DNA of 64,000 nucleotides. Source: Tubulanus polymorphus (Eukaryota > Animalia > Nemertea). Below, one piece after another: positions 25,010 to 64,000 of the stretch. The stretch covers positions 3,427,814 through 3,491,813 of the forward strand of contig NC_134034.1 in assembly GCF_964204645.1 (NCBI RefSeq). Reading direction: 5' to 3'. The first letter of the stretch is position 1; every line of letters starts with the position of its first letter. The translations under genes and the position numbers were made by a program. Below the pieces are notes generated by a model, which was not told the origin of the DNA, made no database searches, and worked only from the letters and a program-made list of their open reading frames with translations.

Positions 25010-25590
25010 CAATACACAGGAAATTTACTACTTTAGATTTTAAAAGCACTGTCGAGCCGTAAACATCGACAAATCGACGTGTGTCACTACATCGTCGTTC
25101 CGGGAATCAGCTGCGAGTTTCTCCTCATTCTGAGAATCAAATCGAGTACAAATTAATTTATTACTACCAGTGATTTGGCTGCGGGCGTCAAGCAGTTAAT
25201 TTAGCAATACCTATTTTTCTTTACCAAATTTACCGTGTTTTTACTAAGATAAATCATAAGTGTACCGGGGAGTCGTAGGCCTAAACTAAACACGCCGAAG
25301 AGAAATAGCGGAGAAAAGCTGTTATGTCGACGAGGTATCAAAATAAAAGAATATATTACTTTATTCAGCCGCTCCATATCAATACCATCAATATTCTATA
25401 TTTCCTACAGTACATACCGATCATTGTCAAATCCACAAGGCATTTACTAAATACAAGTATAAAACACACTCGTATCCGTATGCTGGACTCACACTTGACA
25501 TTCGGAGTAAGCGTTCGCTGTGGGGGAAAGGAGATCGTTCGCTGGGTCGCATGAAGTGTTTATCGAGTTTTACGCGACTTTAAAGCTTTA
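25010..25590. repeat. ~570-bp direct duplication, copy 1 (copy 2 at ~29410-29985)
   Basis: Near-identical sequence from CAGGAAATTTACTACTTTAGATTTTAAAAGCACTGTCGAGCC to GATCGTTCGCTG. Confidence 0.85.
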
Positions 25591-25689
25591 GTATGGTGGC
25601 TGATAAGATAACAAAACACGAATATGCAAATGAGGGCGACATTACGACAAAACGACAAAACTAAAATAACGCGAGAAAACAATGATTTT

Positions 25690-27220
25690 GATTTTGTCGC
25701 CCGCGACAATTCATTATTTTGGTTTTATCGCCCACGACAATTCATTACTTTGGTTTTATCGCCAGCGACAATGCATTATTTCGGTTTTGTCGCCCGCGAC
25801 AATACTTCTTTTTGGTTTTGTCGCCCGCGACAATTCATTATTTTGGTTTTATATTTTGTTTTTGTCGCCCGCGACAATTTTCTTTTTTGGTTTTGTCGCC
25901 CGCGACAATTCAATATTTTGGTTTTATCGCCTGCGACAATTCAATATTTTGGTTTTATCGCCCGCGATAATTCATTATTTTGGTTTTGTCGCCTGAGAAA
26001 ATTCATTATTTTGGTTTTATCGCCCGCAACAATTCATTATTACGGTTTTATTGCCCGCGACAATTCATTATTTTGGTTTTGTCGCCCGCGACAATTCACC
26101 ATTTTGGTTTTGTCACCCGCGACAATTCATTATTTTGGTTTTTTCGCCCGCGACAATTCATTATTTTGCCAAACTAATGAAAAAAAGAATTGTCGCGGGC
26201 GACAAAACCAAAATATTGAATTGTTGCGGACGACAAAACCAAAAAGAAAATTGTCGCGGGCGACAAAAACAAAGTATAAAACCAAAATAATGAATTGTCG
26301 CGGGCGTCAAAACCAAAAACAAGAATTGTCGCGGGCGACAAAACCAAAATAATGAATTGTCGCTGGAGATAAAACCAAAGCAATGAATTGTCGAGGGCGA
26401 TAAAACCAAAATATTGAATTGTCGCGGGCGACAAAACCAAACTAATGAATTGTCGCGGGCGACAAAACCAAAAAAAGAATTGTCGGGGCGACAAAACAAA
26501 AATAATGAATTGTCTTAATAATGAATTATTTTGGTTTTATCGTCCGCGACAATTCAATATTTTGTTTTTATCGTCCGCGACAATTCATTATTTCGGTTAT
26601 GTCGCTCGAGACAATTCATTATTTTGGTTTTATCGTCCGCGACAATTCATTATTTTGGTTTTGTCGCTCGAGACAATTCATTATTTTAGTTTTATCGCCC
26701 GTGACAATTCATTAGTTTGGATTTATCGCCTGCGACAATTCAATATTTTGGTTTTATCGCCTGCGACAATTCAATATTTTGGTTTTATTTCTCGCGATAA
26801 TTCATTATTTTGGTTTTGTCGCCTGAGAAAATTCATTATTTTGGTTTTATCGCCCAAGACAATTCACCATTTTGGTTTTGTCGCCCGCGACAATTCATTA
26901 GTTTGGTTTTGTCGCCCGCCTCAATTCAATATTTTGGTTTTATCGCCCTCGACAATTCATTGCTTTGGTTTTATCTCCAGCGACAATTCATTATTTTGGT
27001 TTTGTCGCCCGCGACAATTCTTGTTTTTGGTTTTGACGCCCGCGACAATTCATTATTTTGGTTTTATACTTTGTTTTTGTTGCCCGCGACAATTTTTTTT
27101 GGTTTTGTCGCCTGCGACAATTCATTAGTTTGGTTTTGTCGCCCGCGACAATTCAATATTTTGGTTTTATCACCCGCGACAATTCATTAGTTTGGTTTTG
27201 TCGCCCGCGACAATTCTTTT
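25690..27220. repeat. ~30-bp satellite (TTTGGTTTTRTCGCCCGCGACAATTCATTAT)n with an internal inverted block at ~26168-26514
   Basis: Directly visible tandem array that resumes at 28333-28660 after an insertion. Confidence 0.95.
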
Positions 27221-27791
27221 TCAGTCCACTTGGGACTTTAGTCCCAGCGGGCTATTGTGTTCACTTTTCGTCCGTCCGTCCGTCCGTCCATAGACGGAAT
27301 CCAGTTTTTTGGGAAGTTTTGAAGACGCTTTAAGGTCATTGGTTTTAGTATGTGGCCATCAGGGGGCGTTGAATAATACAATAACTTAGTATTGCTATAT
27401 TATATTTGTACCAAGGCATATTTTGTTACCATGATCAATTGCAAAGTTGTAGTTCATGACATCGTCTATGATTGTGGTGAGTTTTAAAGGACATTAGTTA
27501 TTCCATATAGTCACCAGGGGGCGTTGAATAGTAGGAAAGCTTAGTTTTTCCTTATTAGATTGGTACCTAGGCATAGTTTGTTACCATGATCCATTGCAAA
27601 GTTGTAGATCATGACATCGTCTATGATTGTGGTGAGTTTTTAAGGACATTAGTTATTCCATATAGTCACCAGGGGGCGTTGAATAGTAGAATGGCTTAGT
27701 TTTTCCTTATTAGATTGGTACCTAGGCATATTTTGTTACTATGGTCAATTGCAAAGTTGTATTTCATGACATGTACTACGATTGTGGTGAG

Positions 27792-28050
27792 ATAAATGAA
27801 GAAATCCCACACTTCGAATTTGAAATTATACTATCAAATTTATTATTACGAAACCACAACGTTTCGGCTGTTGACTAACAGCCATCATCATCATCATCAT
27901 CATTCCACCTGATGATGGCTGTTAGTCAACAGCCGAAACGTTGTCGTTTCGTAATAATAAATTTGATAGTATAATTTCAAATTCGAAGTGTGGGATTTCT
28001 TCATTCATCTACAGTTTACACGGATTATAGTGTTTATTCGACAACTAACT
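27792..28050 (+). mobile_element. Penelope-like element pLTR fragment with an inverted duplicate, inserted in the HINE
   Basis: Near-perfect palindrome with ~110-bp arms (27790-28010) and a short tail. The target GATTRTGGTGAG is duplicated (27780-27791, 28051-28062). It contains a hammerhead motif. Confidence 0.75.
27905..27946 (+). ncRNA. Minimal type I hammerhead ribozyme motif (Penelope-type)
   Basis: CCAC-CTGATGA-T-GGCTGTT(AGTC)AACAGCC-GAAAC-GTT-GTCG. The inverted copy keeps GTGG, which pairs perfectly with CCAC. The palindromic AACGTT is typical of dimer-dependent helix III. Confidence 0.7.
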
Positions 28051-28332
28051 GATTATGGTGAGTTTTAAGGTCATTGGGTTTTGCATATGGTCACCAGGGG
28101 CGTTGAATAGTAGAATAACTTAGTATTTCCATATTAAATTGGTAACGAGGCATATTTTGTTATCACAATCAATTACAAAATCATAGCTGCTCACATGTTC
28201 TATGATTGTGGTGGGTTTCAAGGTCATTGGTTTTTGTATATGGTCACTAGAGGGCGTTATGTGTTGAAATTGTTAGATTGTTGAGCATTTGAAACCACTT
28301 CCCAAGTGAGCATGGTGTCCCTGGACCCCTAG

Positions 28333-28660
28333 TTTGGTTTTGTCTCCCGCGACAATTCATTATTCTGGTTTTGTCGCACGCAACAATTCAATATTTTGTT
28401 TCTGTCGTCCGCGACAATTCATTATTTTGGTTTTATCGCCGCGACAATTCAATATTTTGGTTTTAACACCCGCGACAATTCATTGTGGTTTTATCGCCCG
28501 CGACAATTCATTATTTTGGTTTTATCGCCCGCGACAATTCATTATTTTGGTTTTATCGCCCGCGACAATTCATTATTTTTGTTTTGTCGCCCGTGACAAT
28601 TCAATATTTTGGTTTTGTCACCCGCGACAATTCATAATTTTGGTTTTGTCCCCGTGGTTT
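28333..28660. repeat. Continuation of the ~30-bp satellite
   Basis: Same unit as 25690-27220. Confidence 0.9.
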
Positions 28661-28779
28661 TGTCGGAACATTAAGTTTTTTGGTCGAACAGTGTGTTAAG
28701 GTCGTTTTGGAAATTTACTCGGTCTGATATATTTTGGATTACTGTGTATGTCATTTGTCAGGACATTAAACAGAAGACG

Positions 28780-29050
28780 ACTTAGGATACTACCTTGCGT
28801 GACTCCACTAGTTAGACCGTCTCATTCCAAGATGAGGCGTTCCGTTGATTTCGGTTACAAGTTTCCGTTCAGAGATAACTGCTGAGCCATTTTAACGACC
28901 TATCATTGATACTGTTTCCTAATAGACTATTTAGTAATGGCTGATGTTGAACCTTATCAAATGCTTTGTTGAAAACCACCGTTGAACAGGATTCTAAGAC
29001 TGTGCAGAAAACCCGTTATCGCTGCTTTGCAGCTATATTTATTATTATTT
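28780..29050 (-). mobile_element. CR1/L2-type reverse transcriptase fragment, duplicate 1
   Basis: Aligns with 31250-31510 and encodes the degenerate ..KAFDKVQH..WLSSYL..GVTQGSILS segment. Confidence 0.7.
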
Positions 29051-39214: not shown

Positions 39215-42200
39215 ATGACACACCTAAAAAATCTGTTTGTTTTCATGGTGGCTACAAGCCACGTACGCGTCGCACACGCTGATCGCACGGGTTCAACGGA
39301 GGAATCGTCTGTGGCGGTCAGTTCGTCTTGTAACAACACTTGGTACCCCGTCGATTCTACGTCCGGCTACATCGTTTCGCCGAATTATCCGTCGTTAACG
39401 CGCGGTGTCGAATGTCGTTGGCTCGTCAACGGGTCGTTAACGGGAGTCTTTCACGTACGAGTCTACCACGACATCGAGCCGTTAATTTTCTGCGAGGATA
39501 ACTACCTTCTCGTCGGCGGATCTGGTCACAAATTCTGCGGCGAAGGAGAACACGAAATGCGCCGTAACGATTCGATCTCGTTTTTGTTTAGAAGTAACGT
39601 CGATGGTGCGCGAGGAAGTCGGGTTTATATCGTTTATCGTTATGGACGAAGCCGTTTAAATTTAAGTCACAACTGCAAAGAAATATATCATTTACGCATC
39701 AGCAAGTTACAAACATCGAAAGGGTATAAATTTTATATTAACCAATTACTCTGTCAACTCTATTTAGAATGGATTGGACTTACGGATAGTTTTGCAATGA
39801 ATCTGACATTTATAGCTGTTAGCTTTAAGTTAATCCGCATTTCAGAATCGGCTTCAGTTAAAATTTATGACGGCTGGAACACCAGCAGTGAACCTATCGG
39901 CAATATACCTGAACAAACTGGACTGTCATCAGTATCATTGTACACAAAAACCAACAAGGCAGTCATCAAAGGTTTGCCGTATCAGTCCCTATTTCGTACG
40001 GAATTACTAGTGCAAATTTACAAAATGTCCGATTGGAACATCTCTAAACCGTTGATACAGATTTCTGATAAGGATTCTGGAGTGCTCATTCCTGATGACA
40101 ACAGTTTACACGTAATAACTCGATCAAAACGATTACACTGCTGGTCTATCACGGTGCAGGTGTTACAGTACGTCGTCTTCAACTGGACACATGATTTCGT
40201 CACATCCGGTGACGTCATTGGTGTGTATAAACTAGAAGGGTTACGCGTTGTAGGAACTGATATTCTACTCGGTTACAACTACCTGGAACCGCTAAGTGTC
40301 AAATCCGACGGCTTTCTCGTCATACTGTGCGTTTTACTATCGGATCAACTGGCGACGTCTGAAATTGAAATATTCTATAAAATGGAATCGATTTCGATAG
40401 CGGATGTCAGGTTTTCAACGCGGCAAGTAAGTGCAAACAAGATAGTGATGAACTTTTCGACATAAAAAATGTATACATTTTCTAACGACTTTTGTTATTT
40501 TTCTCTATAGTTTCAGAGATCTTTCGACCCCTTTCTCCTATCCGAGACGATATACAATCTGACGATCACCTATGTCGTGACTACAATAAAGTTCAAGTCG
40601 AAAATCGATATTTTTGATGAAGGTTTACGCATGTTGATTTTATCGGAGAATTGCGAGCGAGCCGGATTTTACATACACGACGGAGGCACTTTGACGGCCA
40701 GACGCTACGGACCGTATTGTCCTAGTTCAAATAGATACGACCGCAACGTCGTCAGTTTGATTACATCAGGTGGCGCGGTTACTATAGTAGCGTACGCTTA
40801 CAAATGGGCTGGACAGTTGATGGATACTAGTAAATTTGAAGGATATCTCAGATTTCAACCGACGGATTGTACGGGGTACGTACTAAAGGAAGGAGAACGT
40901 CAGATTAATATGACGTCACACTGCGTCGTCATTTCACCTAACAACCGACGCCTGCCCTTAAAGTACATTTACATATTGTCAGAACACGAATACCAAATCG
41001 ACCGATGTTTTCCCGAGAAGCAGTGGAGAGCTCCATGCAGCAGGTTCATAGCAGCTTTAACTCGTCAGTTTCTCAATAACAGTCTCGTATTGAACACTGT
41101 GACTTTACGCATGGACAACAAGTTCTGGCAATATCCTCTTATAGTTAAACTACGTCGTAAATGCCAACGTTTGAAGAGGGCTTTGGATAATCGTCAAGGA
41201 TTGATGTTACGGGATAAAGATAAATGTGGAATTATACAGTCACCGAACTACCCGGGATCTGCGGACCGACTTACCCAATCGTATATCTATCAATTTCGGA
41301 ACAGAGCATGGGGACACGTAATTGACAAACACAAATATTACAGATTCGTCATCAAATACATCGAAAAGACACCGTGCTTAAAGACATCTCCACGAGACAA
41401 GGATCCGATCATTTTTACTCAATCTATGCATAGTTTACACGAAAATTGGCAGCTTGACCAGAAGATATGTAGAATTAATTATCCATTACTCGGGAGCGTA
41501 TTTCACAGTTTGCACAAAAGTGGTTTCTCCATCGTAGCAAAAGACCACCCTCCGACATTCCAGATACAATATACCTCAGAAGAAGAATTAGCAATCGAAG
41601 GGAATCACTGTAAATCGGGATTATATGACCCCGGTTATGCATCTTGCGTGAAATACATCAAACACGAACGTCTGAATTGGGAGAATGCTGAATTGTACTG
41701 TAGACAGAAATACGGGGGACATCTACTGAGCATCAACACGGAACAGGAGATGATCGCTATCAAAAGATTATTCGCTACAAAACTTCTACGACTGGCGTAT
41801 ACTCAAAAAACGCTAACGATGATGATTGGATTAAAACTGCAGGTAAATTTGATTTTCGAAGCTGCTACAGTTTGAAGTTAAAGTAAATTTGTAATCCACG
41901 ATTTTCTATTCGACGAATATAGAAAGCCTTTTCAATTATAAACAATCTACCATATACCGATAGTATTGCTGATTTTCATCGCCGTTATAAGGGATGCTAC
42001 CATTAACTTCCACGGTGGTTGCGTACCTTATTGTTCGTTTCTTTTTTGCACAGCCAAATACCGATGGTAACTACACGTGGACTGATGGAAAACCATTGAG
42101 CTACACAGAGTGGTACAAACCTACGAATAACGAAACCATACCAGAAGTTATTCAGGGATTGATATCTCCTCTACGAAAACAACCGATCAATGACGTCAAT

Positions 42201-45200
42201 ATGCCGTGTACGGCGATGATACTTAACAATCCACGAGGATCGGCGAACTGGGTTCGATTCCCGTGTTTAATCGAAGAGGTGCACACCACTTTTATTTGTG
42301 AGTCGGATCGCTTTGATAATAGGCAGGACGACAATTCAACTAAAACCAAAAATGAAAGAAAAAACCATAAAATGCTAGATGCCATTACGTTCAACTCAAT
42401 CTGTACTCGAGGTTGGTTAGGTATAGCCGGACGATGTTATCAAATACTGACGGACTGGAATCGATTTCGTGGATTAGACGTAAAGACAGCGACACGGATG
42501 TGTCGCGCTATCAATGGTGAAATAGCTGTGAACCGATCTCTCAAGAAAATTGAAATAGAGGATTTGATAACTACGTTCAACTATCAACACCAATATGGCG
42601 CAGTGTTAGTAAAGGATGGAACGAACAGATCTAGAGCGATACAACCTTCGTTAACCAGGGATGAAATCACATATATTCATACATTAATTTGGTCCGTTTC
42701 AACCCTTGACAACACAACAGAAATAGGGGTTGTGCATTCTGTGTTGTGTTCCACCAATGTAACTGGCGAAGAGTTATCTTCTATAAGCGATTGCAAAATC
42801 TGGCAGTTTCGATGTAACGACGAAAGATGTATCAGCGACCATCGCGTATGTGATACCAGAAACGACTGTCAACACGGTGAAGATGAACTAAATTGTACCG
42901 ATATTAATTTGCACAGTCAGTTCCGTTGTAGAAATGAGCTGGTAATATCAATGAGTAGTTTATGTGACTTCATACCGGATTGTCCTGATGGTTCTGATGA
43001 AAACTCGTGTGTTCATCCCCCGTGTCTGCCTGAACAACATCGCTGTATCAGTGGCCAATGTGTCGCTAGGTCTAACAGATGTGACGGAGTTGGAAATTGT
43101 TATGACGGCTCAGATGAGATAGGTTGCACTGTCCAACTGTGTCACGGGTTCCTCTGTAACAGTGGAGACTGTATCAGTTCTCAATTGTATCAGGACGGTG
43201 TCGTGGATTGCAGTGGAAGCCTTGAAGAAGACGAAGTGGTAACATCAGCTAATGTTACAGTGAATCCTAAAGTTCAGTGCAATAATGAGAACCAATGTAC
43301 AACTAATTTCACAAACCTCTGTGCGGAATCTGATGAACAAAGATGTTCTTTCAATTCCCCGCATTGCTATTCTAGACGTCACAGATGTGTTTTGGAAAGA
43401 ATGTCATTTGGCTACCCAGTTTGTAGAAATCTTGAGCACGTATCGAAATGCGAAGATTTTGAATGTCCAGCAGGTACTGTTAAATGTCCAGCATCGTACT
43501 GTATACCAATCAGACAGGTGTGCGATGGTCAATCGGATTGTCCCCATTCAGAAGATGAGCAAAACTGCGAGACATTTTCATGTCCTGGAATGTTTAAATG
43601 TGGACACGAAAATCGATGTATTCCACAAACTGAAGTGTGTGATAGTGTTATGCATTGTAAAAACACTACCGACGACGAGGCTTTCTGTAACGTCACGTGT
43701 CCAAGTCATTGTACATGTCAAGGTCATTCTGTGGACTGTAGGAATGTTGGTCTCACCGATATTACTGACCTCATCACAGCATCAACTCGAATTCTAATCT
43801 TGTCGAATAACCGAATTCTTTTCAACGTGTCGACGTTTTCTTCCTTCGTTTATCTTCGTACGCTCAACATCTCCTTCAATGGATTGTCGTATGTTTTGCC
43901 GAAGTCGTTTTCAAACCTGCATAATCTAAACACCTTAGACCTCACATATAATATCATAACAGCGTTATCGACAGATGCATTTATTGGCTTGTATAGTTTG
44001 AAGGAACTATTCATAACTGGGAATCCGATACGATACCTAGAAGAAGGAAGCTTTCATGGTTTAATTTCGTTAACAATTTTCGATCTTCACGGACTGCAAA
44101 TTTCGGTACTCGGCGCAAATGTATTCAAAGGCCTGTCCTCAGTGATTTCATTGGATATCAACAGCAACAGAATCTACTACATATCGAAGTATGCTTTCTC
44201 TGGTTTAAGCGAACTTTCGTATCTTGATTTAGCCAATAATTCAAATTATATTTCCACAGAAAGTCACATTTTCGATAACTTGACATCATTAGTCTCTTTG
44301 AAGTCTGATTTCTACAAATTTTGCTGCATGGCTCCGAATGTCGACCAGTGCTTTCCCGAAGCAGATCAATTTTCCACCTGCGCTGAGCTCATAGGTAACA
44401 CAGTCCTCAGAGCGATCATTTGGGTAATAGCTGCATTCAGCTTCTTCGCGAACAGTATTGTCATTCTATTTCGCATTCAAGTTTCATCATCTGAAACACG
44501 AAACAGATCGTCTGACATCCTCATCATCAACCTGGCTGCTTGTGATTTCATGATGTCAATCTATCTGTTCTTGATCGCAGGTGCCGATTACGTTTATAAG
44601 GGAGTTTATTTCCTTAATTCTGAAATTTGGACTGACAGTTTGCTGTGTCGTCTTGCCGGAATTTGCGTTACAATCTCTTGCGAAGGCTCTTTGGCTTTCC
44701 TGCTCGTCATAACACGTCATCGATACTCAAACATCGTCAATCCATTCTCTGAAAGTATGTTCACATCTCCAAAACACGTCACTAAGATTTGCTGTATTTG
44801 CTGGCTCATGCTGAGTATAATCTCTTTGCTACCGCTGTCACAATCGCCGTACTTCGGTACGAAGTTCTATGGCACTACCGGAGTCTGTTTACCTATGAAC
44901 TTGCTGACTATTGACGTCAAAGCCTGGCACTATTCATTGGCCATTTTTGCCGTATCCACCTCGGTCATACTAGCTACGATAATAACGACGTATGCACAGA
45001 TGTACAGACTCGTATCTGGAAGCAGGTCCGGCTCGGGTAGAATTGACCCTACCGAATTAGTTTTGGCACGCAGGAGTTTGGTGATTAATTCGTGTAATCT
45101 ATTTTGTTGGCTGCCGATAATTACCGTTCAGTTTTGCGCGGTATTACGGGTAGAAATACCGAATCAGGTGGCGGCTTGGCTGGCGGTTCTTTTCTTGCCG

Positions 45201-45290
45201 ATCAACTCGTCCCTCAATCCCATTCTTTACACCATACTGACTATCGATTTAAAATCCATACAAGCAAAATACAAACGTCGTCAACGCTGA
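39215..45290 (+). CDS. GRL101-like LDLa-LRR GPCR with N-terminal CUB-like and C-type lectin domains, paralog A; 3 exons, ~1926 aa
   Basis: join(39215..40426,40511..41842,42054..45290), all phase 0. Signal peptide; CUB 'SGYIVSPNYP..CRWLV..KFCG' and further CUB-like repeats; CTLD 'NWENAELYCRQKYGGHLLSI..WTDGKPLSYTEW'; ~7 LDLa; LRRs; hinge 'DQFSTCAELI'; 7TM ending 'NSSLNPILY'. Confidence 0.9.
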
Positions 45291-45887
45291 ACGAACTCAC
45301 AGAAGCTCCATGCACATTCACATAGACGTCACCAAATGGGATCAAATGTCGGATCAAGTATAGTATAATATCCACACTGATCAGTGGTTTCTCGTTCCGC
45401 GGTTATGTAGTGATTGGGGATAAAAAACGAAAACCCGGAACAAGTAGCCACATACGCTGGTTTTTTTTTTAAATATCTTAACCCATCCTGTATTTCATTG
45501 GCCCATTCCCTCCACTGTACAAGGCACACCTGTCACACTCGACTCCCCATCTTCCGCAAACTAAGAAGTGACCGCGTCACTAGTGTCACATGATCAGTGT
45601 GGATAGTATAATATCTACACTGATCAGTGGTTTCTCGTTCCGCGGTTATGTAGTGATTGGGGATAAAAAACGATCCAAACCCCTTACTGATAACCACAAC
45701 AAATACTAAAAACCTTTCCACAACTACACCCAAACCCCAACTATACTAGCTTGTCCCAGAAATCAGAAGACAGAATATGCATCCGAAGTCGATTTATTTA
45801 GACCCGCCTTAGAAATCGGGTATATTAATATACAAAATTCGTATTAGCGTCTAGTTTCTTATCGATATAAATTGGCGTACGTAGAAC

Positions 45888-47218
45888 CTACACGGATGAA
45901 AACATTGGTTTAAACCCGCTTGTAGCATTATTCAGGCGATATGATTCTACACTTTTATCAGTTAACTGTCCCATAGCTTGACCGAGAGAGTCAGAGACTT
46001 TACCCTGCATCACACAAGCATGTTTGGTGTAATGCTTTGCCATGGACTGAAGCTTCCAACCAATATAAGAAGTCACCTCTTTAGATGTATGGCCCAAAGA
46101 AGCCAACATAACGGAGCATCCAACCCTGAAACTATGCGGGGTCTCACCGTCATACATACAAATTTCTTTTAGGTAAGTTTTCAAACGGCTTCCCACCGCA
46201 TTCGAGTCGAGTCCTTTATTAACGATAGCGCCCTCTTTATTCGTTATCCGGAATAAGTAACCCCCTCCAAGGTCAACTCCAAGCGCCTTTACAACAGCAA
46301 AATACCTTTCAATCGCCAAAACCGGGCACAGAACCGGGTTGTTAAAACGAGTAACTACGGATGTCAAAACCGAACCCTCCCGCAGTGTTTTCCCGAACGT
46401 TAGATTTAAAATGATTACCCTTCCATCGTCACTCTGAGAGATCCCATCTGTCAAAAACCGACCTAAGTCTGCCGCCCTATGTCCTGTTAGAAAATCAAGT
46501 TTGAAGAAAGCCTGGTCCCTTGCTAAAATATACTCCGTTACCGCGGGTAAATCTGGGACAGCCAAGCGTTTATCAATACAGAGAATCATTTTCCGTCAAT
46601 TTGCTAAGGTACATTGGGACGGCTTGTTTAGGGGTGATCCGATTGCTCCTTCTCAGTCACTCTCAGGTATTGTTTTACCTCTTCTGAAATGGTAGGATTC
46701 CCAGTTCCGCGCTCGGGATGCCAACAGCCAATTTTACCAATCGAGTTAAATATTGCCCTTATCTGACCCAGATAGGAATCGACCGTTCCGGCTGCTAGTC
46801 TTTTGGGGCATAAACAACCACCGGTCCTTGGTGAGGCCTTCGAGACTGCTTTCCAACCTCGTACCGGACAGGTTAAAGAGTGTACTACTGTTTTACCCCG
46901 AGCATCCCTGAATACCATGAACCTACAGATATCCCTAGGTGATGCCGTCAACAAGGATCTCGATGGGCGCAGTGACCTGAGGAACAAGACCAAATCTTCT
47001 TCCAGTTTTGACTTCTTTCGGCCATAAACAGAGTTGCGCTCACTCTCTGACATAGATTTTAACCGGGCATCCAAATCTTTTAATGGTAAGGCTAGCAATG
47101 TACCGTTCTCGCCATCCGCATTGCTTAACTCTGAACCACAATTGTAGCAGAAATTTGAGTGCTGTCGCGAGCGATGTCCACAGTCCGCACAATGGTTCTC
47201 GTGATGCAGAGACAGATC
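45888..47218 (-). pseudogene. Retrotransposon tyrosine recombinase: Zn ribbon + ALOG domain + catalytic domain, with two frameshifts at ~46595 and ~46640
   Basis: Zn ribbon CADC..FCYNCG. ALOG 'RDARGKTVVH..C..CLCPKRLAAGTVDSYLGQIRAIF..GNP..VKQYLR'. Catalytic residues GHRAADL, FGKT, HSFR, YIGW, KHY. The linker ITPKQAVPMYLSKL lies in a third frame. Confidence 0.88.
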
Positions 47219-47405
47219 CTGTAGAATATGACAGATCTTAAAAGAACCATAATAAACGAGGTATATCAGAAAAGACAAAGCGTTTATTAACGTAAAAGCA
47301 GAGTTATGCATCCGGATTTTACCGTGCATAGATCAGAGTAGAAAATAAAGACCACCGTTACGCAACACCATGTTATCGCTCAGGAAAACATGTCAATTTA
47401 ATCTT

Positions 47406-49586
47406 TCAATCTAATCTATCAAAATCTATCCTATAAACAAACAGATCCCACGGGATGCCTACTGTATCCTCCACAAAACCTTTTTTAGTCGGATATTTCA
47501 AAACACCCACATCTCCCTTTTTGCCAAGCAGGCGACGTTTGGATGCATGAGAGGTTACCAAAGGCCACCAGAATGGCCTCGGAAAGATTTCTGGAATGAC
47601 GATAGATGCTTCTTTGACTGCGTCTGCCAAGAATCGTAAAACCGCCGGTATCTTAGAAATTGGCGGAAACACATATGGATTAACCTCGTCGCATAGATTT
47701 TGTGCGAACAGATCTACACCACTAGAATCAGTAGATGGCGTTGGCGTAAAATGTCGTAGTGGAGAGCCTGACAAATCTACCATTACGTTCGAATCAAGGG
47801 CCATCAAATCAACCGAGTGTCCGTTTTCACCCCCATATTCACGTTGCACGAGCTGCCATATACGCGGAGATAACATACATTCCGATTTTCGCAAAATTCG
47901 CGAGGGAGCGTCTGCTAGATTCTCTTTTGACGGTACATAATGCAATTTCAACAACACATTTTGTTCTGCTGTTAGTTCAAACAAAAGCTTAATTGCTTCT
48001 GACAGATCATGTGATTTGGAACCTTCACCAACCCATGCCGCAATCATAGTTTTATTATCTACAAAAGCGTCTACTCTAATGTCTCTAATTTTATCAGAAA
48101 CCACCATTAAAACGTTTTTAAGTGCCAGGGTTTCCTTTATTACAATGGGTTTTTGTACCAGCTCCTGTGGCCAATAATCGGAGGGCTCAAACCTCTGCTC
48201 ACCAATCGTGACTATCCCACCCCATCTATAAGAGGATGCGTCCGTATACATCTGAATTCTGACATGCCACTCTTGGCGCCACCTTACCACCCTTGGCAAA
48301 CATTCAATTATCTTCCAGTACTCTATCTCAGTTCTGAGATTGCCCTCAACCCTAATGAGTCTCGAGTTTCTGAATGCCTTAGAAATAGCTAAGTTTGACT
48401 CCCTTGTATAAAGCTTCGCAGCTGGTACAACCAACGAGAAGGATATGATCTTACCCACAAACCGCTGAATCGTTTTAATGTTAACGAATTCGGACGATAA
48501 AATATTGTCCCTTAAAATGGCAAATTTCACCACCTTATCATTTGGGATCTCAAAACGTTCCTCTATAGTGTTAACAAATAAGCCTAAATGCTTTAATAAC
48601 TGACACGGTTCCAGGACGCATTTATGGAGGCCTAGAAAATACCCTAGTCTTGTTAAAACTTGGGCCGTCATATATAGAGCTAACCTAGCCTTTGTGATGG
48701 ATTCTAAACCCCTAGCCGAGGAACTTAAAAGCTCCCCATTTAAACGGTCATCAATGTATTGAGTTATCTGTACTCCTAGGTCTCGAAGGTAACCCGTTGC
48801 AACCAAGCCAGTTTTCTGGTATATATAGACCGAGGCCTTAAAACCAAAAGGAATAACGGTGTAAACGTAATACCAACCTTTCCAGCTGATTCCCAAATAC
48901 ACCTCACTTCCCGGTGTTACCCTGATGTGGTCGTAACCACTTTTATCATCGACAGAGGTCATAAACGCGCTTTTATGTAGCATGCGAGGTACGTTTACCA
49001 AAGTTTCCAAATGGAAAGGCGAGTCCCGAATCCATAGATTTAGAAATCGTTCGTCGTGGCACATTCTGGGTTTCGTGGGTTCAACCGTCAAGGGCATAAC
49101 TAAATGCGGGGGTGAATCGACCCCAACCTTTCCCCAGACCTTGAGTGATCCATTAGCCACCCGACCTTTTAATGTTGTAGAAATGAAATCTTCAAATTGT
49201 TCGCAGTTTCCAGCATTCGGGAACACCGTTTTTGGGGGCGCATTACAATCATACGTCTTGCCTTTTAACTGACCCTTAAACCTCTTAAAGAAATCTGGGA
49301 TATGAACACCATCTCGCACCCAAGATAATATCGTGTCTGACAACGGATCCTCTGACTGCCGTAGAATAAATTCCCATTCCTCCAGATGGCGACTCAGTTC
49401 ACCTGCGACGAAATTCTCCGGGTCCCTGTGGGGCAGGTCAAAAATTGTCAAATTGTTATACTTGTCCGCCGATTTCGAAACGGTCTCGGCTGAGACGACC
49501 TCAGGCAATGGTAACTGGACGGATGAACCTCTAGCACCAACCCAAAACACGTCTTTACACACAGGTATCTTCAACGGAACAAAATC
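47406..49586 (-). CDS. Retrotransposon pol: reverse transcriptase - RNase H - DNA adenine methyltransferase-like domain
   Basis: RT motifs DDKSGYDH, IPFGF, QYIDDRL; RNase H TDASSYRWGG, KET, FVDN, NLADAPSR; MT-like 'SVDLMALDSN..VDLFAQ..PYVFPP'. The ORF starts at a splice acceptor (49586) and has no ATG until inside RT. Confidence 0.92.
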   Translation of the reverse strand, partial: DFVPLKIPVCKDVFWVGARGSSVQLPLPEVVSAETVSKSADKYNNLTIFDLPHRDPENFVAGELSRHLEEWEFILRQSEDPLSDTILSWVRDGVHIPDFFKRFKGQLKGKTYDCNAPPKTVFPNAGNCEQFEDFISTTLKGRVANGSLKVWGKVGVDSPPHLVMPLTVEPTKPRMCHDERFLNLWIRDSPFHLETLVNVPRMLHKSAFMTSVDDKSGYDHIRVTPGSEVYLGISWKGWYYVYTVIPFGFKASVYIYQKTGLVATGYLRDLGVQITQYIDDRLNGELLSSSARGLESITKARLALYMTAQVLTRLGYFLGLHKCVLEPCQLLKHLGLFVNTIEERFEIPNDKVVKFAILRDNILSSEFVNIKTIQRFVGKIISFSLVVPAAKLYTRESNLAISKAFRNSRLIRVEGNLRTEIEYWKIIECLPRVVRWRQEWHVRIQMYTDASSYRWGGIVTIGEQRFEPSDYWPQELVQKPIVIKETLALKNVLMVVSDKIRDIRVDAFVDNKTMIAAWVGEGSKSHDLSEAIKLLFELTAEQNVLLKLHYVPSKENLADAPSRILRKSECMLSPRIWQLVQREYGGENGHSVDLMALDSNVMVDLSGSPLRHFTPTPSTDSSGVDLFAQNLCDEVNPYVFPPISKIPAVLRFLADAVKEASIVIPEIFPRPFWWPLVTSHASKRRLLGKKGDVGVLKYPTKKGFVEDTVGIPWDLFVYRIDFDRLD

Positions 49587-49825
49587 CTGAAAAGACACTA
49601 AGGTCCATCAGTCCAGCCCTGTTGCCAGCACGACATAAGCCGTGACAACAGACTTAGATAGCCTGTGACAACAAAGCCAACCGATCACAAACAACCGATA
49701 ACAAAATGAATTATCCAACATATGATCAATTTAATGGAGAGAAAATAACCTTGTTTAACATCTTTAACAACACAATATAACATTACGTATCATCCAAAAC
49801 TAAATTCAATCAGGTTCTAACTCAT

Positions 49826-50368
49826 TTAGACAACCTCACTTTCAGTCTTCGTTACCACTTGTGGTTGCTTATTCTCAGGACAGTCGCGAACAAAATGACT
49901 CTCTTTGCGGCATAAGAAACAATTCCCCCTGGAACTTCTCCCTGCTCTCCTTGTACCGTAACCTCGGCGCCCAACACATCCCCTGCCTACACCCGACCCA
50001 CCCCAATAGCCGTAAGTTGGGTAATAATTGTTTGTGTGCGGCTTTTTAACCCATTTTGCCTCCACTGATGCCACTTTTTCATCATCCGGGGAGCCAATCA
50101 AACGCCTACACAAAGCAGGTAAGTCTGGAGAATCGATATTTCTCTTGATACTTTTCAGCACAGAATCAAAATACCCTTTTTTCGGATCTGTGGTTTCAGC
50201 TGCCACCTCTACCAAGCCTTCCATACAACAATAGAAGGAAGTATGGATCAAAGAAAGAGCCCGGCCTTTGAAGCGCTGCCCTCACCTGCATCAGAGCGCT
50301 CTCTACTGAACGAGCTGGATGTGTAACCTTCTTCTCGAGTTCCTCCAAACGCTTTAACAATTTTTGTC
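49826..50368 (-). CDS. Retrotransposon gag, main exon (zinc knuckle), with probable small indels
   Basis: Coiled-coil 'LLKRLEELEKK', 'FDPYFLL/MEGLVEVAAET' across a frameshift, an RG-rich stretch and CCHC 'CFLCRKESHFVRDC'. Confidence 0.75.
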
Positions 50369-50843
50369 CTGAAACACACGAGATAAATACAAATATAGAC
50401 TAATCAGCATGACTTCGCAGTAAATAGTTTAAAAGATCGCCATGATTTCGGTTAACGAACAATATATAGTCAAATCTATCATCCTAAATGTTTCATGCTT
50501 CTGCTTCATACCATTACCTACATCTTAATGGGTTATCTTTACATTCCATCTTGCATCTTACATTTTCAGAAGCTGTCTTTTAAAAAACCTAATCTCTATA
50601 AACTTTCTCCTCCAGTAAAGGAAACGAAAAATCCTCTAACTTAACCAAAACAGATTCCCATTCTGTACCCACTAAATCCTGGTATGTGCAAGGCCTAGAG
50701 CAATAAACCTTAAACGCACAGAGCTACACATGTTTTAAACAAATGTCTATTAATTTCCCAATAAATCTACCCAGTCCAGGCCTACCGACCCAGCCCGGGG
50801 GCTACAAATACAGATATAAAACTGAGAAAATAAAAACACTCAC

Positions 50844-51236
50844 CGGTTCAGAAACCCCATCTGGGGTTACCGCACCACTCTCCGCACCGACCGTGCTTGT
50901 ACTAGGTGCGGGCACAGACTTCCTTTTCTTTGGTACCTGAAGGAGCTTGTTCGCGTTCTCGTTAGCGAAAATTATCAAGTGGTGCGCTAGCAGCGGACCT
51001 TCCGTCTCCTCCCAGTTCACCAGCGTTAACAGATCACTCATCTTTTTACCAGTCATAGAAAATACCGCATCATCCACATACTTCCTCGGTGCCGCTTCTA
51101 GTGGCTTAAGCCTTTCGAACCTAGCGAAGGCTGTAGGCCGATCTACGTTCAGATCTAACCCTCTTAATTTCAATAACATGGGGATGATGTCCACCGTTTT
51201 CAAACCGTCTGACAATTTTAAAACCACCGGTTCCAT
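50844..51236 (-). CDS. Retrotransposon leader coding exon (131 aa, ATG plus NLS-like PKKRK)
   Basis: Acceptor TTTCAG|AG-ATG at 51238 and phase-0 donor CCG|GTGAGT at 50844. Confidence 0.65.
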
Positions 51237-51924
51237 CTCTGAAACAGATAAGCGAAAAGAACATCAAAATTACTACCGCATCGTACCAGGAATAAAATTT
51301 AAAAGTATTAGCAAACTGATCCTAACAACCGTCGACAAAGTTTAACCAAATATATACATGTGACCAGACCAGAAAAACGTTAAATTTTCGGCCACATGCC
51401 GAAATTATTTCTCTAGCCACCATCTTAAATTAAACAAGAACTAATACGACAGTAATACACTAATAAAAACTCACCTTAAATCCTCTGTACGATACACAGT
51501 CAAACAAGTCTAATAATACCACCGAGCTCCAAAACTGTCCTCAAATCTGAAAAGCGATTTGACTAACAGGACTTGATGCTAACCCAACACTACCGCTAAC
51601 TACAAAACGAGACCAAGGACTAGGTAAAACGTCACCAGATTGCCTTTACACGCCCAGTAAGATTAAACCGAATTTTGAAAAGCCAATGAAATCCCACAAA
51701 TGAATTCCAAATCCAGACCTTGGAAATGCGCCTATGAATGAAATAAATCTAGCGAAATGCACGCACTGTGACTTACAGTATTTACCCACGTCCCAATAAA
51801 GGCAAAAGCAATCACGCATGTAGCACTGTAACCTAAATGTCATTGACGGTCAAAATGTACCAAAGTACCCTAGCACTTCAAACCTGAACGAGAATTTTGC
51901 CTCAATAAAATCACTATCAATCCA

Positions 51925-52275
51925 TCTCCCGTGCTTCATCCAAAATACTGCACTTATCCCAGAAAATCTAAAAGACCATCTGCCCGTGCTTAAACCCAAA
52001 ATCACGGTACAGTATAACCCAAAACATCAAAATCAGTGTTTCATCCGAAATGACTGCACCAAAATTAACAAACCTAGTGCTTCATCCTAAATGACTGCAC
52101 TAAAACTAACAAAACCAGTGTTTCATCCGAAATGACTGCACCAAAAATAAATAAAAACCAGTGTTTCATCCGAAATGACTACACTAAAATCAATAAACTC
52201 CAGTGTTTCATCCAAAATGACTGCACTAAAACTAATAAACCCAGTGTTTCATCCAAGATGACTACACCAAAGTCT
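51925..52275. repeat. ~40-bp tandem repeat (~8 units) in the element's 5' region
   Basis: Unit CCAGTGTTTCATCCGAAATGACTGCACYAAAAYTAAYAAA. Confidence 0.85.
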
Positions 52276-52597
52276 CCAAACCAGGCAAAAGGGGACGAAA
52301 ACTAAAGAAGAAACCACAAACAAAATTCCAAAGAAAAATACCAAATGCTACCGGAAAGGAACCACAGAAAATCGGCAAACGCAGGAGACAAAACTCACCA
52401 CAAAACAGCTGACCACACACGTCCGATAGCTTCGAAAGCAAACTAAGAAGTGACCGCGTCACTAGTGTCACATGATCAGTGTGGATAGTATATGGGATTG
52501 TGGTTCCTTCGGTGTATGATTATATAGAAACGGTAGGTTGTGATTGGCTTCTCAGACGCAATGTTAAGATATCATACAGTGAGAAGTGCCGTCAATT

Positions 52598-58935: not shown

Positions 58936-59460
58936 GTCTGACGCAGATAATCAAAAAAAAACTATTGTGCCAAGAAAACTAACCTTGAGAGTTTATTGAC
59001 GCATACATTACTTAAAATTGCTTGAAACTTGTATTCTCCTCTGTTCTTTTGTGTGTTAAGAAATTTCATTTAAAAAAAAATTTCTGACAATATGTGATTT
59101 AAAATAGATTATCCATTATTAAGGATAAATAAAGTTATTTTGAATTTGAACATATCGATAATTGAATTGACCGGCAACCAGTCTAACCCCGATATATTGA
59201 TGACGTAGTGCACATCCTCTCAAAAATAATTATTGAAACTTATCTTAAATATGAGGAGAATTATGAATATATATTTAATCACAAAATAAACGCCAGAATT
59301 CAGAATTGCTATTGTCATTCTAAAACGCAAATATCGATGACGTAAATGAATGAACCGAGCTAGACAGTAAATGAAATAAGATATTCATAAAATACGCGAA
59401 GAGGATGTAATCGTCGATAATACAGTCAAATACCGTTAAACGCCATCTTTTTAATGCCAC

Positions 59461-59777
59461 TGGTATTGGTAATGGTAATGGTAATGGTAATGGTAATGGT
59501 AATGGTAATGGTAATGGTAATGGTAATGGTAATGGTAATGGTAATGGTAATGGTAATGGTAATGGTAATGGTAATGGTAATGGTAATGGTAATGGTAATG
59601 GTAATGGTAATGGTAATGGTAATGGTAATGGTAATGGTAATGGTAATGGTAATGGTAATGGTAATGGTAATGGTAATGGCAATGGTAATGGTAATGGTAA
59701 TGGTAATGGTAATGGTAATGGTAATGGTTATGGTTATGGTTATGGTAATGGTTATGGTTATGGAAATGGTAACGGTA
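59461..59777. repeat. (GGTAAT)n hexamer microsatellite, ~50 units
   Basis: Directly visible, ~120 bp beyond the stop codon of GRL101-like paralog B. Confidence 0.98.
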
Positions 59778-59897
59778 AAATGTAATGAAAATATCGTATT
59801 ATGTAAAATTTCTTATTGTTATCTATTTAAGTGCAGCAATTATCCTTGGAGCCGCGCAATAAACGAAAATGAATCATTATCATTTCCGTTATCGTCA

Positions 59898-62800
59898 TTA
59901 TTTTATTGGTTGTTGTTTTCTGCGTTTATTTCGAGCTCGTATGGATTTCATATCAATAGTTAGAATAGTGTAAAGAAGTGGGTTCAGAGTTGAGTTAATG
60001 GGCAAGAAAAGAACGGCCAGCCAAGCGGCGACCTGTTCCGGTATCTCGACCGAGAATACGGCGCAGAATTGAACGATTATTAACGGTAACCAGCAAAATA
60101 AATTACACAAATTGATTACCAAACTGCGTCGAGCTAGAACGAGTTCTGTAGGATCAGCTCGTCCCGAACTGGACCTGCTTCCGGATACATACTTGTACAT
60201 CTGCGCGTACGACATCATTATCAGAGTGAGAATGATCGCGTTTAATACAGCGAATATAGCGAACGAATATTGCCAACCATTGACATCTATAGATATTAAA
60301 TTCATAGGTAAACAGATACCCGTGCTACCGTAGAAACTATCACCGAAATAAGACGACCGAGACAGCGGCAGAAAGGCGATCAAACTCAGAAATATCCAGC
60401 ATAAACAGGAGAGTATCAAAACAATTTTTGAGGATAAAAGCGGGTTACCTGAAAGCGGATTGAGGATATTTGAATATCTGAAACGCGTGAGGAGAAGGAG
60501 AAATGTTAAAGAGCCTTCGCAAGATATCGTCACCACAATTCCGGCTACGCTGCATAGTGAACTACGAGTCCAAGTTTCAGAATTCAGAAAATAGACACCT
60601 TTATAAACGTAATCAGTTGCAGCGATCATAAACAGATAAACGGACATCAGGAAATCACAAAGCGCGATATTAATGATGAGGATATCCGACGATTTATTTT
60701 GCGTTTTTGGTAAAACTCGAATCGACCTAAAGCGAAATAAAATAACTGCAATGTTGGAAACGCAAGAAAAACAAGCGATGATCCAGACAACAGCTCCGAG
60801 AACAGTGTTCTCAATGAGGTCTGAGCACGATGAGAATTGGTCAGGATCCGGGAGACACCGGTCAATATTCGGTACCATACAACAGAATTTATACGCATCA
60901 GAAGCGAGAAAATACAAAGACGTCAGATTATCGAAGATATTATTTTCCACAGAGATTATCCGGGAATTGTTGGTAAAATCAAGAACTCCCAGTGAAATCA
61001 ACCCAGAAAACGCGTATCTGGATATTGAATTTATTGCGTTATTGCTGATGTTCAAGTATTTCAGCGCTGGTAGGCCTCGGAATACGTTACGAGTAAGAAC
61101 CGATATAGAGAGACCGTGCAGATCGATAACCGGTAGTGACGTCAAACCATTGAAGCTCCCATCGTACAAATATCTCAGCGGATTTCCAGCGAGTAAAAGT
61201 TGCTTTAAATTGTTTAAACCGGTGAATGTATCAACATGTAGTGATACTAGACGATTATGCGACAGATCTAGTGTATTTAGATTGCGTAGATTAGAAAACG
61301 CGTTGGAGACAATGTCAGATAATTCATTACGTGAAATAATGAGTGTGAAAAGGTATAAATAAGGGGAAAATGTCGATTCATTGAATCTAACTTGGTTATT
61401 TGATAAAATCAAAACTCGAGTCGACTCGGCAAAAATGCCGGTAATATCTGATAAAAGGGCGTTTTTACAATTAATGAAACGACCTTGGCATTTACAATAC
61501 TTAGGACAGATGACGTCACAGTAGGCCTCGTCATCCGAGTTATGTTTACAATTGACGACACCATCGCAAACTTCCAACTGAGGAATACATCTGTGTTCAT
61601 CACCGCATTTAAACATTCCTGGACACGAAAACGTTTCACAATTCATTTCATCTTCTGAATGAGGACAATCTGATCGACCATCGCACACGTGTCTAATCGG
61701 TATACAGTAAGACGATGGACATTTCACTGTACCAGCTGGACATTCAAACTCATTACAATGCAATAAATGTTCGAGTCTTCTACAAACAGGAAAACCTGTC
61801 GGCATTCTTTCTAGAATACATCTTTCTTTTCTCGAATAACAATGAGGAGAATTGAATGAACATCTTTGTTCATCTGATTCTGTACAGAGTGAAGTGAAAT
61901 TGGTCGTGCAGTAGTTCTCCGTATTGCAGTGATCTTTTGGTTTAATTGTTATGTTGGTCGTTACTATTTCATCTTCTTCGAGGTCCCCGCCACAATCTAC
62001 AACACCGTCCCGATACAACAGAGAACTGATACATTCACCATTTACACACAGAAACCCGTTACATTTGTCCGAAGAGCAGCCGATCTCATCGGATTTATCT
62101 TTGCAATCAACCAGTCCATCACATCGTTTATATTTACTCACACATTGTCCATTGTCACACGTAAATTGTGCGGAGGAACATGAAGTATGATAGCACGAGT
62201 TCTCATCTGATCCGTCAGCGCAATCTCGTACAAAATCACACAAATTACTCACTGATATAACTCTCAGTCCGTCTGAACACTGGAATTTACTGTGTGAGTT
62301 TATACCCGAACAATCGAGTTCGTCCTCACCGTGTTGACAGTCGTTTCTAGTGTCACATACGCGATGGTCGCTGATACATCTGTGATCGTTACATTGAAAC
62401 TGCCACGATTTACATCCTCTCATAGAAGCTAGCTCTTCATTAGTAACATCATAGGAACATAGCACGGAATGCGCTACATCTGTTACATTATCGAAGGCAG
62501 TCATTGACCATTTCACCGTTTTAATATATGTTATCCAATCTCTAAATACTTCTGGCTTTATTGCCATAATTTTTCCGATTGTATGATTTGTCAGTATAGC
62601 GCCATATTGATGCTGATAGTGGAAAACATTTATCAAATACTGAATGTCAAAATTAGTTTTTATTTTACCTACGTCACCACCAATTTTCAGACACATTTCC
62701 GTGGCTCTCAGGGTTGTTAGGCTTTGAGTGTGGAGCGTTCCCCAGGCCGTAAGTATCTGATAGCAATGCGCTTCTATATGAATCCACCCTTTTAGACACG

Positions 62801-64000
62801 TAGAGTTGAATCGTTCGAAGTTGTTCCGTCTTATTTCAGTTGTATCGTTTTGCGAAGATGCGTTAGAGTCGTTTCTTTCTGTTTCACAAATGAATGTCGT
62901 ATGCGTTTGTATGATTTGACACGGGAATCGAACCCAGTTCGCCGATCCTCGTGGATTATTCAGTATCATCGCCGTGCACGGCATATTGACGTCATTTATC
63001 GGTTGTGTTTTTAACGGAGATATCAATCCTAAAATGACATCTGGTATTGTTTCATTAACAACAGGTTTAAACCACTCTGTGTAACTTAACGGTTTACCAT
63101 CAGACCACGAGTAATAACCACTGGACTCCTTTAAAAAAGACAAACTAACCCTTTGTATACATTCAATAGTGAATATTCCTTTAGAATTATAAGAGGATTA
63201 TTTGATCATTATTTTGAAGTTTCTATGAGATGACGATTTGATAAATGGATCGTTATTTACCTGCCATTTTAATCCAATCATCACAATAAGCGCCGTCTGT
63301 GAATATGCCTCATGAAGCAGTTCTGTAGCGAACAGCTTTTTAACGACCATCATTTCATGTTGAGAGTTGATACTGAGAAGATGTCCTCCATATTTCTGTC
63401 GACAGTAATTTTCCGCGGTCTCCCAATTCATACGTTCTCGTTTGATGTATCTGATACACGAAACACCAGAATCTAGAAAATCTGATCGGCAGCCATTGAT
63501 TCGATGTTTCATTAAAGGCGATTGTTCTAAAGTGTATTGAATTTGAAATATCGGACTATAATCAGTTGACAGCTCAAAATATACGTCATACCCGAGTAGA
63601 CTGTACAACACAAGTCCAGGAACTGCGTTATTTTCACATATATTTGTTATATGACGGGTTTGCGCAAACGTAGAAAATGGATCGTTTGGATCGTCAAATA
63701 TTTTGATGATTTGTGTTAGTAATATTGATTCCCTAACGCGGTAGGAAAGAGATTTAGTGCACGATGTTTGTCCGATGAATTTAAACAGAAATCTGATATA
63801 ATGATTGATACTTTTGTCAGTAGGATTAGTAAATTCAAAGAATTTTGAAGTTGTAGCAGATGGTAATCCTGGGAAGTTCAATGATTGGACGAGTCCACAA
63901 AAATCATTATTTGCGCCCCCACCTCTAAAACCTGGACTCGATTGACCTTTCTTCAATTTCTGACATTTACGTCGTAATACAATCATTAGTGCTGACCTCC
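59898..64000 (-). CDS. GRL101-like LDLa-LRR GPCR with CUB-like/C-type lectin extension, paralog B (5'-partial)
   Basis: complement(join(59898..63128,63261..>64000)). Same phase-0 intron inside the CTLD as paralog A, and collinear domains through 'NSTLNPLLY'. Confidence 0.92.

Follow-up and report, generated by a model that had tools for sequence, protein, structure and literature searches.

Leader-to-gag splicing in an ALOG-type, PAT-like tyrosine-recombinase retrotransposon of Tubulanus polymorphus and a likely common front end of its Gag, Pol and recombinase

A 64,000-nucleotide (nt) stretch of DNA from the ribbon worm Tubulanus polymorphus (NCBI RefSeq assembly GCF_964204645.1, contig NC_134034.1, positions 3,427,814 to 3,491,813 of the forward strand), here called the window, contains at 45360-52492 on its minus strand a complete ALOG-type, PAT-like tyrosine-recombinase (YR) retrotransposon bounded by split direct repeats (Table 1). 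Pfam matches within the element comprise reverse transcriptase (RT), ALOG, zinc ribbon, phage integrase and a CCHC knuckle. A first-pass annotation of this DNA had proposed that gag, pol and recombinase are alternatively spliced onto one common leader exon. We found that the leader is spliced to gag, and comparison with relatives makes it likely that Pol and YR are spliced from a second donor inside gag, Gag being made when this donor is passed over.

As expected for the order DIRS, the element combines RT (RVT_1, E 1e-07) with a tyrosine recombinase whose catalytic motifs are present, and an RNase H lies 3' of the RT. The D-E-D-D motifs of RNase H are found in the window copy; its RNase H piece alone gave no Pfam RNase H match, and RT_RNaseH matches were obtained in the related proteins P0092 (E 6e-06) and P0045 (E 0.002). 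The zinc-ribbon and ALOG matches ahead of a catalytic YR, together with the zinc knuckle of gag (zf-CCHC), are those of ALOG-type DIRS1-like elements. Since the split repeats in the order A1-B1-A2-B2 and the methyltransferase domain predicted from its fold at the end of pol match the definitions of PAT-like elements in the accessible parts of two reviews of the group (PMC4157794, PMC3266345), we assigned the element to this class on repeat layout and domain content, the pol tree covering only the relatives found here. Direct split repeats at its ends separate it from strict DIRS1-like elements, whose terminal repeats are inverted and occur with an internal complementary region, and the methyltransferase-fold domain separates it from Ngaro elements, which are without one. 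[quoted passage not shown]

The last 159 residues of pol are predicted to adopt an adenine-methyltransferase-like fold (predicted local distance difference test, pLDDT, 92). The top structural match was the cap adenosine methyltransferase 6irx (Z 11.0, root-mean-square deviation 2.9, 135 residues aligned) in a list made up almost entirely of methyltransferases; the best Foldseek E value was 0.003, and no Pfam or PDB sequence match was obtained for this domain.

Table 1. Features of the element and their positions in the window (a slash within a sequence marks the exon border; X4 is one of the public runs described in the text)
Feature	Position	Strand	Evidence or remark
Terminal repeat A1 (element 5' end)	52438..52492	-	55 nt, 100% identical to A2; opens with the 8-nt core
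Non-coding exon 0 (5' limit open), donor GTG/GTGAGT	52399..52428	-	X4 joint 51599/52399
Intron 0, 799 nt, GT-AG	51600..52398	-	X4 joint 51599/52399
Non-coding exon 1	51475..51599	-	X4 joint on each side
Intron 1, 236 nt, GT-AG	51239..51474	-	X4 joint 51238/51475
Coding leader exon, ATG 51236, 131 codons, PKKRK, phase-0 donor	50844..51238	-	Sequence and RefSeq relatives
Intron 2 (leader to gag), 475 nt, GT-AG	50369..50843	-	X4 joint 50365/50843, 3 letters between; RefSeq XP_074653461.1 at the same codon
gag 5' piece, coiled-coil-like by eye, closing at internal donor CAG/GTGAGG	50286..50368	-	Putative exon common to Pol and YR
gag with CCHC zinc knuckle and two frame breaks in the window copy	49826..50368	-	Pfam zf-CCHC, contigs, frames
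pol exon, phase-0 acceptor 49586, open over 726 codons	47406..49586	-	Frames, Pfam, fold; joint not seen for the window element; RT YIDD at 48758, RNase H-like YTDAS at 48248, methyltransferase-fold domain 47421-47897
YR exon, 5' part: phase-0 acceptor 47218, zinc ribbon, ALOG domain	46628..47218	-	ALOG_dom E 3.7e-21; joint not seen for the window element
YR catalytic part with R, K, HxxR, W, Y motifs	45888..46595	-	Phage_integrase E 3.7e-08
Internal repeat B1	45603..45673	-	71 nt, 99% identical to B2
Junction of B1 and A2 in the circle, a 6-bp spacer between 14-bp inverted arms, likely recombinase site	45592..45625	-	Repeat ends and pattern in relatives
Internal repeat A2	45556..45610	-	55 nt, 100% identical to A1
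Terminal repeat B2 (element 3' end)	45360..45430	-	71 nt, 99% identical to B1

The splice sites that the first-pass annotation had placed at 51475, 51238, 50844, 50368, 49586, 47218 and 50286 were all found there, in the phases it gave. Exon 1 ends in the donor AAG/GTGAGT (last exon base 51475), the acceptor TTTCAG/ at 51238 precedes the ATG, the 393-nt leader frame closes with CCG/GTGAGT, and the gag, pol and YR acceptors each read CAG/GAY with a CTGAT upstream; the second donor inside gag is likewise in phase 0. As had been claimed, the pol and YR acceptors are in phase with the leader donor: the leader joined to 49586 is open over 857 codons and joined to 47218 over 327, where the frame ends at a break of the window copy past its ALOG part. 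This break puts the catalytic part of YR out of frame with the ALOG part, the two forming a single open reading frame (ORF) in most relatives. One of the breaks in gag lies near 50231, and in the window copy the leader joined to 50368 stops after 4 codons. The earlier argument that the gag frame depends on the length of an A run downstream of the acceptor holds, because contigs of two runs (X2 and X4, below) differ in this length and the frame of two of the three RefSeq members stays open across the run. The pol frame has no ATG until inside RT (the first is codon 171 of the open frame), and 240 nt separate the gag stop from the pol acceptor, both as described before. Ahead of the start codon, unspliced RNA would carry 18 ATGs against none after splicing. 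Intron 0 contains 41-42-nt tandem repeats (51994-52271).

The element is carried by four public runs (X1-X4), all from one study and none recorded as RNA. Across 46900-52480, the joints listed for X4 contigs were 51599/52399, 51238/51475 and 50365/50843, and all three fall exactly on GT-AG ends. Thus the junctions 51475 to 51238 and 50844 to 50368 that the first-pass annotation had named as checks were recovered, while those into 49586 and 47218 were not among the X4 joints listed for the window element; the joint across intron 0, with 29 letters on its short side, marks an additional intron absent from that annotation. The contig that joins leader to gag is in frame over the A run, unlike the window copy. 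None of the three joints was listed across the same interval for X2, which comes from the same sample and whose contigs read through unspliced, nor was any among the joints listed for X1 and X3. When all four runs were aligned to the element, the two stronger joints, among the 15 listed of 24, occurred in X4 only. We infer that X4 is RNA. Moreover, RefSeq Tubulanus polymorphus proteins with a leader 95% identical to that of the window come from models that join leader to gag identically. These joints, the RefSeq models and the layout of the sites establish leader-to-gag splicing in this element.

Contigs of X4 are absent from 49552-49868 and 47224-47274. The gag contig stops at 49869, and the pol contig covers 47275-49551, starting 35 nt inside the acceptor and ending 8 nt past an AATAAA at 47288; as contigs cannot show ends, these limits were not counted for splicing or polyadenylation. 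The X4 contig of YR runs from 47223, near the YR acceptor, upstream into 474 unlike letters, an insertion or a foreign exon, which contain a 13-nt match to 49708-49720. A 14-nt stretch is common to loose ends of X2 at 48546-48765 and 51318-51352, as would be expected if a different mobile element inserted into copies of this one.

A profile search with the leader returned 388 proteins, and the best 150 of these comprised 124 with the leader alone, 14 with leader and gag, 5 with leader and pol, 3 with leader, ALOG and YR, and 4 others. Four annotated pairs from mussels, a scallop and Lineus have a common N-terminus followed by Gag in one member and by Pol (three pairs) or YR (one pair) in the other. 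The front ends are identical at 164 of 168 residues in Mytilus P0140 (Gag) and P0139 (Pol), over 97 residues in Lineus P0272 (Gag) and P0142 (Pol), at 26 of 26 in Argopecten P0223 (Gag) and P0099 (Pol), and at 147 of 150 in P0227 (Gag) and Mytilus edulis P0252 (YR). Wherever the point of divergence could be located, in these four pairs, it is the donor inside gag and not the leader donor, and in each pair the Gag form continues with valine, as a phase-0 GT donor predicts. Concordantly, P0131 and P0139 mapped on the related locus L008 use donor 2077 and acceptors 1901 and 2831, all picked beforehand from the DNA alone. The splice route of P0045 could not be fixed. P0092, considered as a direct fusion of leader to pol, was rejected because it carries the gag piece, and a full Gag-Pol splice from donors where gag ends (49856, weak and in phase 0; 49840, in phase 1) was dropped because relatives part early in gag. 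Of the original proposal, alternative splicing to proteins with a common N-terminus is therefore upheld by the leader-gag joints and the annotated proteins of relatives, whereas the departure point of Pol and YR moves from the leader donor to the gag donor at 50286, which the first-pass annotation had offered only as an alternative. Since the pairs of relatives part at this donor, all three proteins likely share the leader and the gag 5' piece, which is 28 codons long in RefSeq copies.

To follow the layout in DNA, we used the best 80 of 456 loci from an alignment of pol, which form 47 families besides the window. Families in which a region was missing or its profile match began late were dropped from the respective count (gag 24, pol 11, YR 29 in a strict or 20 in a wide setting). 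Every AG before each ORF was scored with an approximate splice matrix, and the phase of the top AG was recorded. Spaced, non-overlapping ORFs recur, the open frame of pol beginning past the gag stop in 28 of 30 families. With the window left out, phase 0 was recorded for the top gag acceptor in 19 of 23 families (binomial p ~2e-6), for that of pol in 26 of 36 (~2e-6) and for that of YR in 15 of 18 strict (~2e-5) or 21 of 27 wide (~3e-6). Phase 0 coincided with a frame open into the ORF in 18, 22, 15 and 20 families, in the same order, against 2.6, 6.2, 7.0 and 8.4 expected for a random AG, and the median score of the top acceptor was ~6.7 versus ~1 or less on the opposite strand. The layout that the first-pass annotation had suggested looking for in ALOG-YR elements of other animals recurs over diverged families.

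The gag-internal donor, at 50286 in the window, is the top-scoring gag donor, in phase 0, 63-96 nt in and at a homologous place, in 8 of 30 families, window included. These eight all fall on one side of a split in the pol tree (FastTree, support 0.90; L002 stands in for the family of L043). Because the other 22 families are without such a donor, the gag-internal route is not family-wide. They still have phase-0 acceptors at all three ORFs, and in six of them a short Pro/Ala-rich open frame with a phase-0 donor was seen upstream of gag (by eye, 24 loci listed), so that they may choose directly among the acceptors from the donor of a short low-complexity leader. The leader as known from the window was found upstream of gag in six loci; it closes with a phase-0 donor in L001, L008, L050 and, by eye, L052. 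In L008 (1010-1226) and L052 (1852-about 2290) the leader domain is itself interrupted by an intron at a similar place, and annotated Mytilus proteins join the L008 halves. L044 (2755-8374) has the order leader-YR-gag-pol; a phase-2 intron splits its leader, the second half of which stands in the YR frame (a weak match, E 0.023 alone). This arrangement points, weakly but independently, to a leader-YR protein.

Among the related loci, L012, L015 and L020 have YR or gag matches on both sides of pol, which suggests tandem element copies. In L024 (3007-3600, by eye) and in protein P0025 (Pfam PF13472), pol continues into a domain resembling SGNH/GDSL hydrolases, of a kind that Ngaro elements are described as having. 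No relative was found in a collection of viral contigs.

The leader is a folded domain of about 100 residues of no known family (model pLDDT 85). Fold searches gave no clear match (best Z 3.4); the SAP/LEM/HeH fold was considered, SAP/LEM-like entries scoring Z 2.5-3.1 across roughly residues 42-96, which is noise level. The Atlas contained no usable match. A basic cluster lies between the leader core and the gag piece in 8 of 15 leader-gag proteins; the nuclear localization signal is hence not a fixed feature of the leader, and its function is putative.

These data are best explained by the removal of three introns to give a leader-gag message and by the production of Pol and recombinase through a donor 28 codons into gag, with a common front end of ~159 residues. 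We consider this reading probable, and several observations weigh against it. RNA support for the fusion proteins, which are gene models, is not visible; GT/AG signals are used by gene finders too, and some models (P0216, P0185 and P0227) are plainly odd. The profile of the gag piece is clear in only 4 of 14 pol or YR fusions, scoring 3.5 bits in one more and less than 2 bits in 9, so that the route of these is judged at most by eye. The splice matrices contain approximate values, and L043 has no GT donor past its leader. In X4, a run of unrecorded type, the gag contig crosses 50844 as well as 50286 with no branch, and the pol contig bears 7 gap letters, so that its source copy may be non-coding. 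Further points against it are the one-study origin of the runs, the missing joints to the pol and YR acceptors, the in-frame ATGs of many families (below) and the families without a gag-internal donor.

The scheme first proposed, in which the leader donor at 50844 chooses directly among the gag, pol and YR acceptors and the gag-internal donor is incidental, draws on the open frames of the leader joined to pol or YR, on the families that keep three phase-0 acceptors without an internal donor, six of them with a Pro/Ala-rich leader, and on P0045. We regard it as unlikely for this element, given that every pair with a fixable parting point uses the gag-internal donor and that the window has a strong one and groups with the families keeping it. 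Still less probable is that only leader-to-gag splicing functions and that Pol and YR arise from internal starts (own promoters, reinitiation or an internal ATG), the acceptors being kept for other reasons. Only leader-gag models were found for Tubulanus, where searches for leader-pol or leader-YR proteins yielded none (1 match among 468 candidates in one, best identity 49% in another, 0 of 1352 in a third), itself weak evidence; two in-frame ATGs lie upstream of the YR acceptor in the window copy, and one precedes the conserved core of pol in 20 of 36 families and that of YR in 9 of 27. ATG-initiated pol and YR frames had been named as evidence against the splicing scheme, and to this extent they exist; yet the core has no ATG ahead of it in 16 of 36 families for pol and in 18 of 27 for YR, and the first pol ATG of the window sits inside RT, well past residues conserved in relatives. 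The annotated fusions also speak against internal starts, as does the phase-0 bias (p ~1e-6), which is unexpected if the sites join no coding frames. We give very little weight to the idea that spliced DNA copies, or dead copies processed by the host, account for the X4 joints and gene-finder artefacts for the gene models. The unrecorded kind of X4 and the frame breaks in the window copy and the X4 contigs would agree with it. However, the joints are missing from those listed for X2, X1 and X3, a spliced DNA copy would itself require splicing, and one dead copy cannot explain the conservation of site, phase and position over families ~45% identical in pol.

Under splicing from the gag-internal donor, a single transcript would start near A1, and removal of introns 0-2 gives the leader-gag message. 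Use of the internal donor would then yield leader and gag piece fused to Pol or to YR, and its non-use Gag, with site strength setting Gag in excess. Judging from its anatomy, unspliced RNA with its upstream ATGs would be a poor message and serve as genome; since the introns are inherited, unspliced RNA must persist. The common head, a folded domain plus a coiled-coil-like piece, would bring Pol and YR into Gag particles, a role that frameshift fusion fills in LTR elements. The copied circle would close at B/A, creating a palindrome at which YR would integrate it.

This palindrome at the B1/A2 junction is likely the recombinase site, as judged from the repeat ends and from relatives: the pattern ATA-N4AC-TAT with 12 of 13 arm matches occurs in 4 of 80 related loci (L018:3963, L020:1435, L044:8604 and L048:3579), each time behind the last ORF, and in none of 20 shuffled sets. 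We take it to resemble dif or loxP. An 8-nt core is common to both element ends and the junction, which suggests a sequence-matched target. A joint across the whole element, 45367/52503, with 20 letters on the short side, was found in X1 and X2 and fits an empty site.

In the neighbourhood, two intron-free frames of 1099 codons face each other at 41991-45290 (plus strand) and 59901-63197 (minus strand) and are 70-82% alike in stretches. The former encodes low-density lipoprotein receptor class A (LDL-A) repeats, leucine-rich repeats and a seven-transmembrane domain, and is presumably GRL101-like; the element ends 70 nt past its stop. Arrays of 31-nt repeats in both orientations occupy 25560-28780, and a run of 12-nt (GGTAAT-type) repeats lies at 59380-59835.

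Domain-wise, the element belongs with the ALOG-domain DIRS1-type retroposons of Iyer and Aravind (2012), whose metazoan copies were called fragmented and which share with it a Gag zinc knuckle, RT-RNase H, a methyltransferase-like domain, a zinc ribbon-ALOG YR, direct repeats and occurrence in marine animals; the accessible main text of that paper contains none of the terms splic-, intron or exon, whereas the ORFs of the window are separate exons with a common coding leader (PMC3537659). PAT-like elements agree with it in the layout A1-ORFs-B1A2-B2, the methyltransferase domain and the expected lack of target duplication; their ORFs often overlap, and introns are not mentioned in the available parts of the sources (PMC4157794, PMC3266345), in contrast to the intron-spaced ORFs found here. 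YR elements are described, in the accessible portions of four accounts, as having three ORFs, often overlapping or frameshifted (PMC6681497, PMC3783388, PMC9210276, PMC3266345), and where the accessible part of PMC7192593 treats splicing, it is that of a marker introduced by engineering. The literature searched contained no report that YR retrotransposons are natively spliced, subscription reviews, Repbase notes and supplements being outside its scope. We regard this splicing, established for leader to gag and likely for pol and YR, as a real, conserved and apparently undescribed expression strategy in a known element class.

Outside this class, foamy viruses also make Pol from a spliced subgenomic RNA rather than by frameshift, as the accessible part of PMC7828637 describes; their Pol is separate, without Gag sequence and packaged through RNA, whereas Pol and YR of the window would keep the Gag front, and the element has no envelope, protease or DDE integrase. 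The element works partly like retroviruses with spliced pol, yet is no member of them. In plant Ty1/Copia elements splicing likewise sets the ratio of Gag to enzymes while unspliced RNA persists; according to the accessible part of the source (PMC5580714) Gag comes from spliced and Pol from unspliced RNA, while all proteins of the window element need splicing and the enzymes would need one more step. The LAP2alpha exons of TMPO and ZNF451 provide a DIRS gag used as spliced last exon, and their authors infer that an acceptor and a poly(A) signal came with the captured element; they concern host capture of a DIRS1-like, inverted-repeat element and, in the text available, are silent on the element's own expression (PMC4495291). 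By analogy, native acceptors like those of the window element would explain that inference.

More tentatively, and with slightly less than even confidence, we suggest that a wide branch of YR retrotransposons may consist of multi-intron genes in which every protein is host-spliced, a folded head domain unnamed until now and a coiled coil act on Gag, Pol and recombinase as common assembly tag and unspliced RNA is an untranslated genome, with gene order free to shuffle (as in L044) and a dif/loxP-like junction forming with the ALOG recombinase a defined integration system of two parts. No account of how pol and recombinase are expressed from separate ORFs in YR retrotransposons was found in the papers searched, and the splice scheme offers one, with exact junctions that can be tested in mussel, scallop and ribbon worm. 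The B1/A2 palindrome is a candidate site for a eukaryotic tyrosine recombinase, and the scheme gives a possible reason why DIRS gag could be captured twice as last exon in mammals. If it is true, such elements would be misread as dead ORFs without ATG or as 'uncharacterized' host genes, and splicing onto a common head would join frameshift fusion and foamy-type RNA capture as a third means of bringing enzymes into retroelement particles.

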